This document shows positions 21,024-21,778 of a stretch of DNA of 64,000 nt, piece after piece. Below the pieces are notes generated by a model. The model did no database searches. It was not told where the DNA came from and worked only from the letters and a program-made list of their open reading frames with translations. A program made the translations under genes and the position numbers. The stretch is from the NCBI GenBank assembly GCA_028824685.1, contig JAPPCZ010000053.1, forward strand, positions 21,554 to 85,553, given 5' to 3'. Each line of letters begins with the position of its first letter. The first letter of the stretch is position 1. The DNA is from Candidatus Poribacteria bacterium (GTDB lineage: Bacteria; Poribacteria; WGA-4E; WGA-3G).

Positions 21024-21042
21024 GCGCGGTTAAAAAACGCAC

Positions 21043-21309
21043 CATAGGCGTCAATTTAGTGAGTGACGTTTGTGCTTCTGATACACCTTTCGCCCCTCTG
21101 GGCTTGCTATTGAGAGGATCAACGCTGACTATACACCTTTCGCCTCTCTGAGGCTTTGACAAATCCCATATTAGCACCAGCGGTGCGGAAGGTTTATAGA
21201 AACCATATCACCCCACACCCAAAGCACCAGCGGTGCGACAGGTGTGTGGCTAAAATCGGGGTTAGAAACCCCTCCAACAAGATATGATTTCCTTAAATTG
21301 ACGCCTATG
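21043..21309. mobile_element. MITE-C copy flanked by a 19-bp direct target duplication
   Basis: TIRs are 16/16 identical (CATAGGCGTCAATTTA). GCGCGGTTAAAAAACGCAC occurs at 21024-21042 and again at 21310-21328. Confidence 0.8.
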
Positions 21310-21778
21310 GCGCGGTTAAAAAACGCACCAAACTGTCTGAATCGCGGAAGGCGCGTTTACAAAACGTGCCTACCATGGGTGTGATGCAATTGTAGGTCGG
21401 GTAGAGCAACGCGAAACCCGACAAATCATGCGGAATCATGTAGAATGCCAAAAGCGCATTCTACCAAGTGCATTCCGCCAAGCGCATTTGGCGTTGATTT
21501 GGACATGGAATCCTATCTAAAATCATACGTGTCGGGTGTCGCTACGCTCTACCCGACCTACCATATTGCAAGTCCCGCATAATCAACCACCATGCCCCAT
21601 ATTGTGCCAGTTCAAACAGAAGATGCACATTCTTGTGCAACAATCGGCATATTCCTCGCTTTGAAGTTGGCATATAAATTGCTCCTTTTTTAGTACATTC
21701 CCGGTGTCCGCACAAAAGGAGCATACACCGATGAAAAAACACTATATCCCGTTTTGACAGCACTGTTCCTGACATACT

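Follow-up and report, generated by a model that had tools for sequence, protein, structure and literature searches.

The length of the target-site duplication (TSD) is used as a hallmark of insertion sequence (IS) families, and is read as the distance between the two active sites of the transpososome on the target. In the classification of 2008, a TSD of 'approximately one DNA helix turn', namely 7–13 bp, was part of the definition of the IS4 family (De Palmenaer et al., 2008, PMC2266710, Table 1). Within this family the IS231 subgroup has the end signature CAT-------AA--TAA and a TSD of 10–12 bp (PMC2266710). IS231A duplicates 11 bp with the motif GGGNNNNNCCC, which corresponds to GGG-N5-CCC (PMC2577343), and MIC231 cassettes are mobilised in trans by the IS231 transposase (PMC6199540). 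Here, we describe a family of MITEs (miniature inverted-repeat transposable elements) in a stretch of 64 000 nucleotides, hereafter the window, from contig JAPPCZ010000053.1 of a Candidatus Poribacteria bacterium. The elements share terminal inverted repeats (TIRs) and several of them are flanked by duplications of 18–20 bp. We consider it very probable that they are MITEs of an IS231-like IS of the IS4 family, with a stagger of about 20 bp that is set by the DDE transposase of master copies located elsewhere.

Long TSDs are not unprecedented in bacteria, with 16–28 bp in the IS1202 group, 16–26 bp in IS1630 and 8–514 bp in IS1634/IS1549. In the IS1202 family, subgroups with TSDs of 3–5 bp and of 16–28 bp track the transposase phylogeny (PMC10132070). 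Long, lineage-specific TSDs have a precedent there, but the transposase is TnsB/Tn7-like, the ends are TGT/ACA and no target preference was found for the long-TSD group. IS1630 of Mycoplasma fermentans is reported to target and duplicate inverted repeats (PMC3317919). It belongs to an unrelated transposase family (IS30) and its TSD is variable, following the target repeat, whereas the TSD here is nearly fixed, also at non-palindromic targets. IS1634/IS1549 (IS1634 family, formerly in IS4) is IS4-related and has long direct repeats (PMC2266710), but these are highly variable, the end signature is another one and the YREK motif is incomplete, with one of Y, R and K not conserved.

Repetitive extragenic palindromic (REP) sequences are the preferred sites of several ISs, among them IS621, IS1594 and those surveyed by Tobes and Pareja (2006) (PMC3184786). 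IS621 and IS1594 are of the IS110/IS492 family (PMC3184786) and not of IS4. A further difference from the REP-targeting ISs is that here the whole interior of the repeat is duplicated, which leaves an intact-looking repeat on either side. A search of the literature, in which ISfinder was not covered, returned no paper on an IS4-family element with a 20 bp TSD, on an IS of Poribacteria or naming the Herpetosiphon IS discussed below.

Flanking duplications and empty sites

The window was searched with the TIR pattern CATAGGYGTCAAYTTAAG, allowing up to three mismatches and taking the expectation from shuffled sequence. Thirteen matches were obtained against 0.12 expected. They include five facing pairs; a sixth complete element lies at 29972–30337. 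In total there are six complete elements (220–366 bp) and three partial ones, with CATAGGYGTCAAYTTAAG as their ends. They are MITEs: their TIRs are those of the partner element described below, they are small and multicopy, they contain no transposase gene, and they have both TSDs and empty sites. Two palindromic repeats of the window are important for what follows. R1 is a REP-like palindrome, GTAG GTCGGGTAGAG-N-CGAAACCCGAC, present in about 26 copies, and R2 is a second palindrome, GGCGCG-N-CGCRCC, present in about nine.

Three MITEs have perfect flanking duplications. The element at 21043–21309 (267 bp; TIRs CATAGGCGTCAATTTAGT and CTTAAATTGACGCCTATG) lies between identical copies of GCGCGGTTAAAAAACGCAC at 21024–21042 and 21310–21328, the left copy forming the inner portion of an R2-type hairpin repeat that immediately follows the stop codon of a TPR/trypsin-like gene (18432–21023). 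The facing TIR pair at 32354–32626 (273 bp) is flanked by identical copies of GATAAGCGACGCGAAACC at 32336–32353 and 32627–32644, the first of them within a degenerate R1 repeat that has no hairpin fold. The third of these elements, at 35019–35310 (292 bp), folds as a long hairpin (z = -9.55) and lies between identical copies of GGTTTCGTCCCTCAACCC at 35001–35018 and 35311–35328. The copy at 35001–35018 is the inner part of an R1 repeat, GTCG↓GGTTTCGTCCCTCAACCC↓GACCTAC, where arrows here and below mark the cuts. An initial annotation made from the sequence alone (the first-pass annotation) had placed the second copies correctly for the first and third of these pairs, and one base too far to the right, at 32628–32645, for the other.

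Each of the three perfect TSDs has a different sequence. Because the first base of the element is C and the last is G, their length can be read in two ways: 18, 18 and 19 bp in the strict sense, and up to 19, 20 and 21 bp when the shared end bases are counted. These three exact pairs, together with the 13 TIR matches, bear out the original description of MITEs with 18–20 bp flanking duplications that differ from site to site.

Empty sites were sought on contigs that encode orthologues (83–94% identity) of an extracytoplasmic function (ECF)-sigma fusion protein of the window (32853–34649), by alignment to the window. This protein shares 94% identity with one recorded from Poribacteria. On L123/L124 and L125 (our handles for these loci) the MITE at 35019–35310 is absent and a single R1 repeat (TTTGTCGGG...CCCGACCTACAAGAC) occupies the exact site. 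On L126 the MITE at 32354–32626 is absent, again with a single R1 repeat, GTAGGTCGGGTAGAGCAACGCGAAACCCGACATGTATA, in its place. Orthologous empty sites therefore exist for two of the three copies with perfect TSDs and, since these sites are single-copy and uninterrupted, the flanking repeats are true TSDs, as had been proposed. A candidate empty site beside the TPR gene, on contigs L121 and L122 that were found via the exact protein, was rejected; it comes from the same strain as the window and is occupied.

The first-pass annotation also held that two older copies have diverged duplications of the same length. This is correct for the MITE at 29972–30337 (29953–30356 with its TSDs), the flanks of which, GGTTTCGCTCCGCTCTACC at 29953–29971 and GGTGTCGCTGCGCTTTACC at 30338–30356, are identical at 16 of 19 positions; its right TIR is interrupted by a nested 60 bp element at about 30275–30334. 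It is not correct for the 220 bp MITE at 52671–52890. Here two different R1-type repeats flank the element, only 10 of 21 positions are identical and no TSD, diverged or otherwise, is recognisable. A nested ...CGTTGATT element lies inside this copy. One complete MITE had been overlooked, that at 18025–18301 (277 bp), which has perfect TIRs and no TSD. Its right flank is half of an R1 repeat (GGTTTCGTAAACTCTACCCGACCTAC) and its left flank is unrelated, probably as a result of rearrangement after insertion. We considered an inversion by recombination between the copies at 18025 and 52671, suggested by their reverse-complementary right and left flanks. The idea was dropped because the R1 variant concerned, GGGTAGAGTTTACGAAACCC, represents a common subfamily (also present at 15971–16030) and the flanks do not show the predicted pattern.

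The three partial copies comprise a truncated or degenerate MITE at 42484–42780, a solitary TIR and a fragment. The first has a left TIR at 42503–42520, preceded by the R2-type sequence GCGCGTTTAGAAAACGCAC (42484–42502), and no intact right TIR. The solitary TIR is a degenerate right end on the minus strand at 36257–36274, with three mismatches, followed by the R1-like sequence GGTTTTGCTGTGCTCTATCC. The fragment, on the minus strand at 23912–24050, shares 96% identity with the first 139 bp of the MITE at 18025, and its TIR CTTAAATTGACGCC (24037–24050) is cut by a nested ...CGTTGATTTG element.

Some further differences between the window and its relatives were observed. The loop of the R1 repeat orthologous to that at 35001–35018 differs among three related genomes (L123, about 6195–6215; L125, about 6155–6180), that of L123/L124 being the exact reverse complement of the loop in the window (GGGTTGAGGGACGAAACCC versus GGGTTTCGTCCCTCAACCC). 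The loops of R1 repeats flip or are replaced rapidly. L123–L126 also carry a gene for a protein of 622–623 amino acids directly upstream of the sigma-factor gene, which the window (32325–32852) does not have. On L126 this gene lies between a 98-amino-acid open reading frame (ORF) and the sigma-factor gene, the junction at which the window has the MITE at 32354.

The autonomous partner and its relatives

A tblastn search of the 64 kb window with the partner transposases gave no homologue, in agreement with the earlier remark that no autonomous partner is visible there. We scanned one genome per species for the TIRs and obtained 120 loci, mostly from Poribacteria, filamentous cyanobacteria and various metagenome-assembled genomes (MAGs). 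In Poribacteria, TIR pairs 1451–1476 bp apart enclose a single ORF of 438–444 codons. Full-length copies are found in L041 at 1884–3353 (TSD GTGCGGTTTCCTAACCGCAC, 20 bp), in L091 at 2380–3830 (TSD GGTAGAGCGAAGCGAAACC, 19 bp), in L212 at 173–1648 (19 bp) and in L213 at 177–1645 (20 bp). The autonomous partner is an IS4-family element of 1.45–1.48 kb with IS231-type ends and a DDE transposase of 438–444 amino acids, carried by other Poribacteria genomes; a protein-coding element with these TIRs, for which a search had been recommended, does exist. The ends of the MITEs and of the four full-length copies are 88–100% identical, mostly 94–100%, over 16–27 bp, and these terminal 16–27 bp are all that they have in common. 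The interiors of the MITEs are unrelated to the IS and consist of small hairpin modules, and they fold as long hairpins.

The partner transposase matches the Pfam family DDE_Tnp_1 (E = 6e-24). It scores 201–210 bits with the NCBIfam IS4 model NF033592 (cut-off 115) and only 36–44 bits with the IS1634 model NF033559 (cut-off 100). With a model score below the cut-off and a nearly fixed TSD length, the element falls outside the IS1634 family. In the transposase alignment the DDE triad, Asp121, Asp193 and Glu327, is invariant, as are R, E and K of the Y(2)R(3)E(6)K motif. Chlorohelix and IS231D retain the Y, the position of which is occupied by L in Herpetosiphon and by I, V or T in Poribacteria. 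The transposase has more than 400 protein matches at E < 1e-10, the best 120 of them with 77–100% identity, and many sit on contigs of about 1.47 kb, typical of a multicopy IS. Among annotated plasmids the best matches are Herpetosiphon aurantiacus pHAU01 (34.6%) and Candidatus Chlorohelix (31%). Hundreds of Bacillus IS231-type elements come next, at about 26–29% identity across about 93% of the length; one of these carries the annotation 'transposase for insertion sequence element D'. Among relatives that have a name, the IS231 elements of Bacillus are the best matches. The TIR CATAGGCGTCAATTTAAG has CAT at positions 1–3, AA at 11–12 and TAA at 15–17, which fits the end signature of the IS231 subgroup.

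The partner resembles IS231 and MIC231 of the Bacillus cereus group in its single-ORF DDE transposase, its fitting ends and its length of about 1.45 kb. As with IS231A, the target is symmetric with G-rich and C-rich triplets at its edges and, as with MIC231, the non-autonomous derivatives share only the ends, although the MITEs carry no passenger genes, unlike MIC231. The differences are also clear. The TSD is 18–21 bp (GGG-N14-CCC), outside the 7–13 bp of the IS4 family and outside the 10–12 bp and GGG(N)5CCC target of the IS231 subgroup. Transposase identity is only about 26–29%, whereas many pairs within the subgroup exceed 50%. The Y of YREK is often replaced, and the hosts are Poribacteria, Chloroflexota and soil bacteria, not Bacillus. 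Because the TSD length agrees neither with the family nor with the subgroup and the identity is only about 26–29%, we file the element as a new IS4-family subgroup outside the IS231 subgroup proper. The first-pass annotation was right that 18–20 bp is an unusual length. Its appeal to an unusual integration mechanism does not hold, since the partner is an ordinary single-ORF IS4-family DDE transposase gene between IS231-type ends.

The longest adjacent direct repeat was scored at every TIR pair in the 120 loci. Poribacteria gave 29 TSDs (two of 18 bp, nine of 19 bp and 18 of 20 bp), with 16 pairs lacking one. The 29 belong to MITEs or ISs, including the full-length copies in L041 and L091; those in L212 and L213 are additional. 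In cyanobacteria 14 pairs have a 9 bp TSD, mostly GGCANTGCC inside a longer palindrome, and nine have none; a low-complexity 23 bp match in one cyanobacterial locus was excluded from the count. Other phyla contributed seven TSDs of 9–11 bp and one of 19 bp in an unclassified MAG, with three pairs lacking a TSD. The two Chloroflexota relatives are plasmid-borne. The Chlorohelix copy has a 20 bp TSD, GGGTGCTAAAACCAGTGCCC, and the Herpetosiphon copy one of about 18–20 bp, its right boundary being ambiguous.

More distant relatives were taken from metagenomes, as 80 loci at 29–40% transposase identity. A clean TSD of 19–21 bp, mostly 20 bp, was present in 13 of the 80, all 13 on soil-metagenome contigs, with typical examples (GGGTTCGGAGTACCTCACCC and GGGTACCGAAGACGGAACCC) that correspond to GGG-N14-CCC; a TSD of 9–12 bp was found in none of them. 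The remaining contigs are short and many are chimeric or hairpin-assembly artefacts. Apparent inverted duplications on L194, L182 and L195 were rejected as assembly hairpins, their flanks being reverse-complementary over 60–70 nucleotides. The inverted flanks of L176 and L180 extend over only about 22 nucleotides and are not evidence for inverted duplication; chimeric assembly accounts for them best, or else recombination among copies that lie in members of one repeat family with opposite orientations.

TSD length is a property of the lineage. Our data also raise the idea of an undescribed and widespread IS231-like IS4 subgroup (Poribacteria, Chloroflexota and soil bacteria) that attacks its target two turns apart (GGG-N14-CCC, 20 bp) instead of one (GGG-N5-CCC, 11 bp), to which we would give a little under an even chance. 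In cyanobacteria and in other phyla, MITEs with the same 18 bp TIR have TSDs of 9–10 bp. Were these moved by a closely related transposase, it would mean a shift of the stagger by about one helical turn and little other change. No transposase homologue was present in the 41 cyanobacterial loci, and no cyanobacterial record appears among the 30 best plasmid matches listed.

One full-length IS copy, in L059 at 3245–6164, contains a nested second IS with a DDE_5 (IS701-like) transposase of 472 amino acids; it has no TSD.

Target choice and the origin of the long stagger

All TSDs in the window are R1 or R2 interiors, with cuts placed symmetrically in the stem (GTC↓GGG...CCC↓GAC), which upholds the claim that hairpin repeats are the preferred target. 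Alignment of 32 Poribacteria sites gave a symmetric half-site logo with G at -4, T at -3, A/C at -2 and G at -1, then G at +1, T/G at +2 and G/T at +3. Some sites are not palindromic. There are four such 20 bp TSDs (CTGTTAGTTTGCGGGCTATC, GTTGACGATGTGCTATACAC, GCGTAGTCTTGTTGGAGCAT and GTATGCATTAGAAACTTATT) and a further non-palindromic target of 19–20 bp (GGGTTAGCTTATGAGGTTGC). Three of the four were folded, together with the degenerate R1 repeat of the window at 32336, and no significant fold was obtained. Since duplications of 19–20 bp also occur at non-palindromic, non-folding targets, the hairpin is preferred but not needed, and the proposal that the stagger arises from a cut across a hairpin is not supported. 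TSD length looks like the product of a protein ruler of about two helical turns, tuned by one base pair in either direction according to half-site position, and the stagger looks like a property of the transposase rather than of the hairpin.

In the mechanism that we propose, the DDE transposase of a master copy (438–444 amino acids) would bind both TIRs and excise the element. As an analogy to Tn5, Tn10 and IS231A suggests, excision would be of the cut-and-paste type, with a hairpin intermediate. Both 3' ends would then be joined by the transposase to phosphates that lie on opposite strands of the target, about 20 bp, or two helical turns, apart, and gap repair would copy the intervening 18–21 bp to give the long TSD. 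Each cut would be positioned by a short symmetric half-site, GT(A/C)G↓G(T/G)(G/T) in Poribacteria and GGG...CCC in the distant relatives. Palindromes of the right size (R1, GTC↓GGG-N13-CCC↓GAC, and R2) would offer two correctly spaced half-sites and so be preferred, the hairpin itself being unnecessary. The partner transposase would mobilise the MITEs in trans, as that of IS231 does MIC231, and the spacing of the active sites or bending of the target may be the origin of the 20 bp ruler. The scheme builds on the TIRs, TSDs, empty sites, autonomous partner, family assignment, TSD-length distribution and half-site logo, all of which are observed here.

Several points weigh against this interpretation. 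The evidence is static sequence throughout, and it is from this that transposition itself is deduced. There is no master copy in the window, and those identified are in other Poribacteria genomes. No TSD accompanies about one third of the TIR pairs (in Poribacteria 16 of 45, in the window two of the five scored), so that recombination after insertion or chimeric assembly has to be invoked for these. Most members have I, V, T or L where the YREK motif has its Y. A profile of six aligned transposases found no sequence match in the PDB, and the Tn5-like architecture is that suggested by the family models. Finally, most targets are palindromes, and the TSD (18, 19 or 20 bp) follows them in size, so that some structural contribution from the target is possible.

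A rival explanation is hairpin or cruciform capture of the type proposed for IS1630, in which the base of an extruded palindrome would be attacked at short range, giving a TSD equal to the hairpin in size. Most Poribacteria targets are palindromic (R1, R2 and GTGCGG..CCGCAC) with symmetric cuts in the stem, the TSD at palindromic targets varies between 19 and 20 bp with the length of the loop, and the inverted repeats that IS1630 is reported to duplicate are 16–26 bp long (PMC3317919 and the title of Calcutt 1999, cited there). Such a process would hardly produce exactly 19–20 bp at the five clearly non-palindromic targets given above, nor act at the three of these that were folded or at the site at 32336, where there is no significant fold. 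Neither would it keep the TSD within 18–21 bp across phyla, a range that is narrow in comparison with that reported for IS1630. We regard it as unlikely.

The flanking repeats might instead be two neighbouring REP-like copies, a composite unit or REP doublet, rather than TSDs. R1 is very abundant (26 copies in 64 kb) and often paired, and the complete copies at 18025 and 52671 have non-identical flanking repeats. Against this, the flanks at three sites are direct repeats with 100% identity, whereas independent R1 copies differ in their loops, and many TSDs in other genomes are unique, non-repeat sequences. With exactly one R1 copy and no element at the orthologous positions in L123/L124, L125 and L126, the composite-repeat explanation, which the first-pass annotation had named as the way in which its claim could fail, is contradicted and can be excluded with very little residual doubt. 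Integration by a site-specific recombinase, with the 18–20 bp direct repeats as att-core duplications, is the least credible explanation. Att cores do typically comprise direct repeats of about 20 bp, but the repeat here changes from site to site and does not occur within the element, the TIRs are identical to those of a DDE-transposase IS and no recombinase is associated with the elements.

A coherent lineage with IS231-type ends and a symmetric G-rich/C-rich target, yet with a two-turn TSD, forms a natural comparison pair with IS231. Structures and domain swaps of such a pair could show how a Tn5-like transposase measures its target. There is also a practical aspect. The elements are abundant in Poribacteria and soil metagenomes, and programs for finding ISs and MITEs that limit the TSD to about 15 bp will mis-call them.

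Duplication of a whole REP-like hairpin means that insertion spares the repeat and any function that it has beside a gene end, which may explain the accumulation of the elements in intergenic repeats. The duplicated copy stays a target, since the duplication takes in the whole interior and the half-site GTAG↓G is similar to the element end CTATG↓G. A 20 bp duplication thus leaves an intact target on both sides and could drive the formation of the nested and abutting MITE/REP arrays of these genomes. A second element abuts the TSD of the first in L091, L090, L093, L054, L212 and L073.

Tandem arrays of partial MITE and hairpin units with periods of 152–236 bp were seen in L038 (1189–2258) and L073 (2401–3010). 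They resemble the outcome of unequal recombination between duplicated 19–20 bp targets, not of repeated transposition.

Other repeats and genes of the window

R1 has an asymmetric GTAG/CTAC tail and frequently occurs as convergent pairs 40–130 bp apart, an arrangement like that of REPINs and BIMEs. Such pairs are found at 539/577, 5547/5634, 7680/7793, 10435/10474, 28560/28612, 42254/42293 and 51453/51504. Tandem pairs of modules of about 50 bp (GAGCCNCGTAGNGGCGGTATGT..., complement ATATCGTYCCTACGGRACT) are found within TIR-bounded elements as well as elsewhere, at 15668–15842, at 23781–24010 and in the interiors of the MITEs at 18025, 29972, 35019 and 42503. The interiors of the MITEs are put together from independent small repeats.

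A second and very abundant family consists of tiny nested elements of about 35–90 bp, with a GAATGCC...GGCATTC-type hairpin followed by ...CGTTGATTT(G). Examples lie at 15983–16017, 30275–30334, 30357–30440, 24051–24135 and 52725–52760, and there are about 20 more. They are inserted between ...CCC and G... without evident duplication, and they split R1 repeats (between CTCTACCC and GACCTAC), modules (between GTCCC and GTAGGGAC) and MITE TIRs. Their insertion looks like that of IS200/IS605-type (PATE-like) elements. A TnpB gene on the minus strand at 21810–23060, about 500 bp from the MITE at 21043, encodes 416 amino acids (OrfB_IS605) with Cas12f1-like TNB and HTH_OrfB domains, and is possibly connected with the tiny hairpin elements.

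Runs of an 8 bp periodic motif, TGTATACRYGTATA, are intergenic and often beside R1 (3822, 8527, 11655, 11782, 17926 and 36660). A search against Rfam gave a single tRNA as the only match in the window. Three large genes encode WD40 repeats (25840–27741, 40201–42189 and, on the minus strand, 42906–44795); these and the trypsin-like/TPR gene at 18432–21023 contain highly regular repeats of 126 and 102 nucleotides. An intergenic tandem repeat of three 104 bp units occupies 27738–28050.

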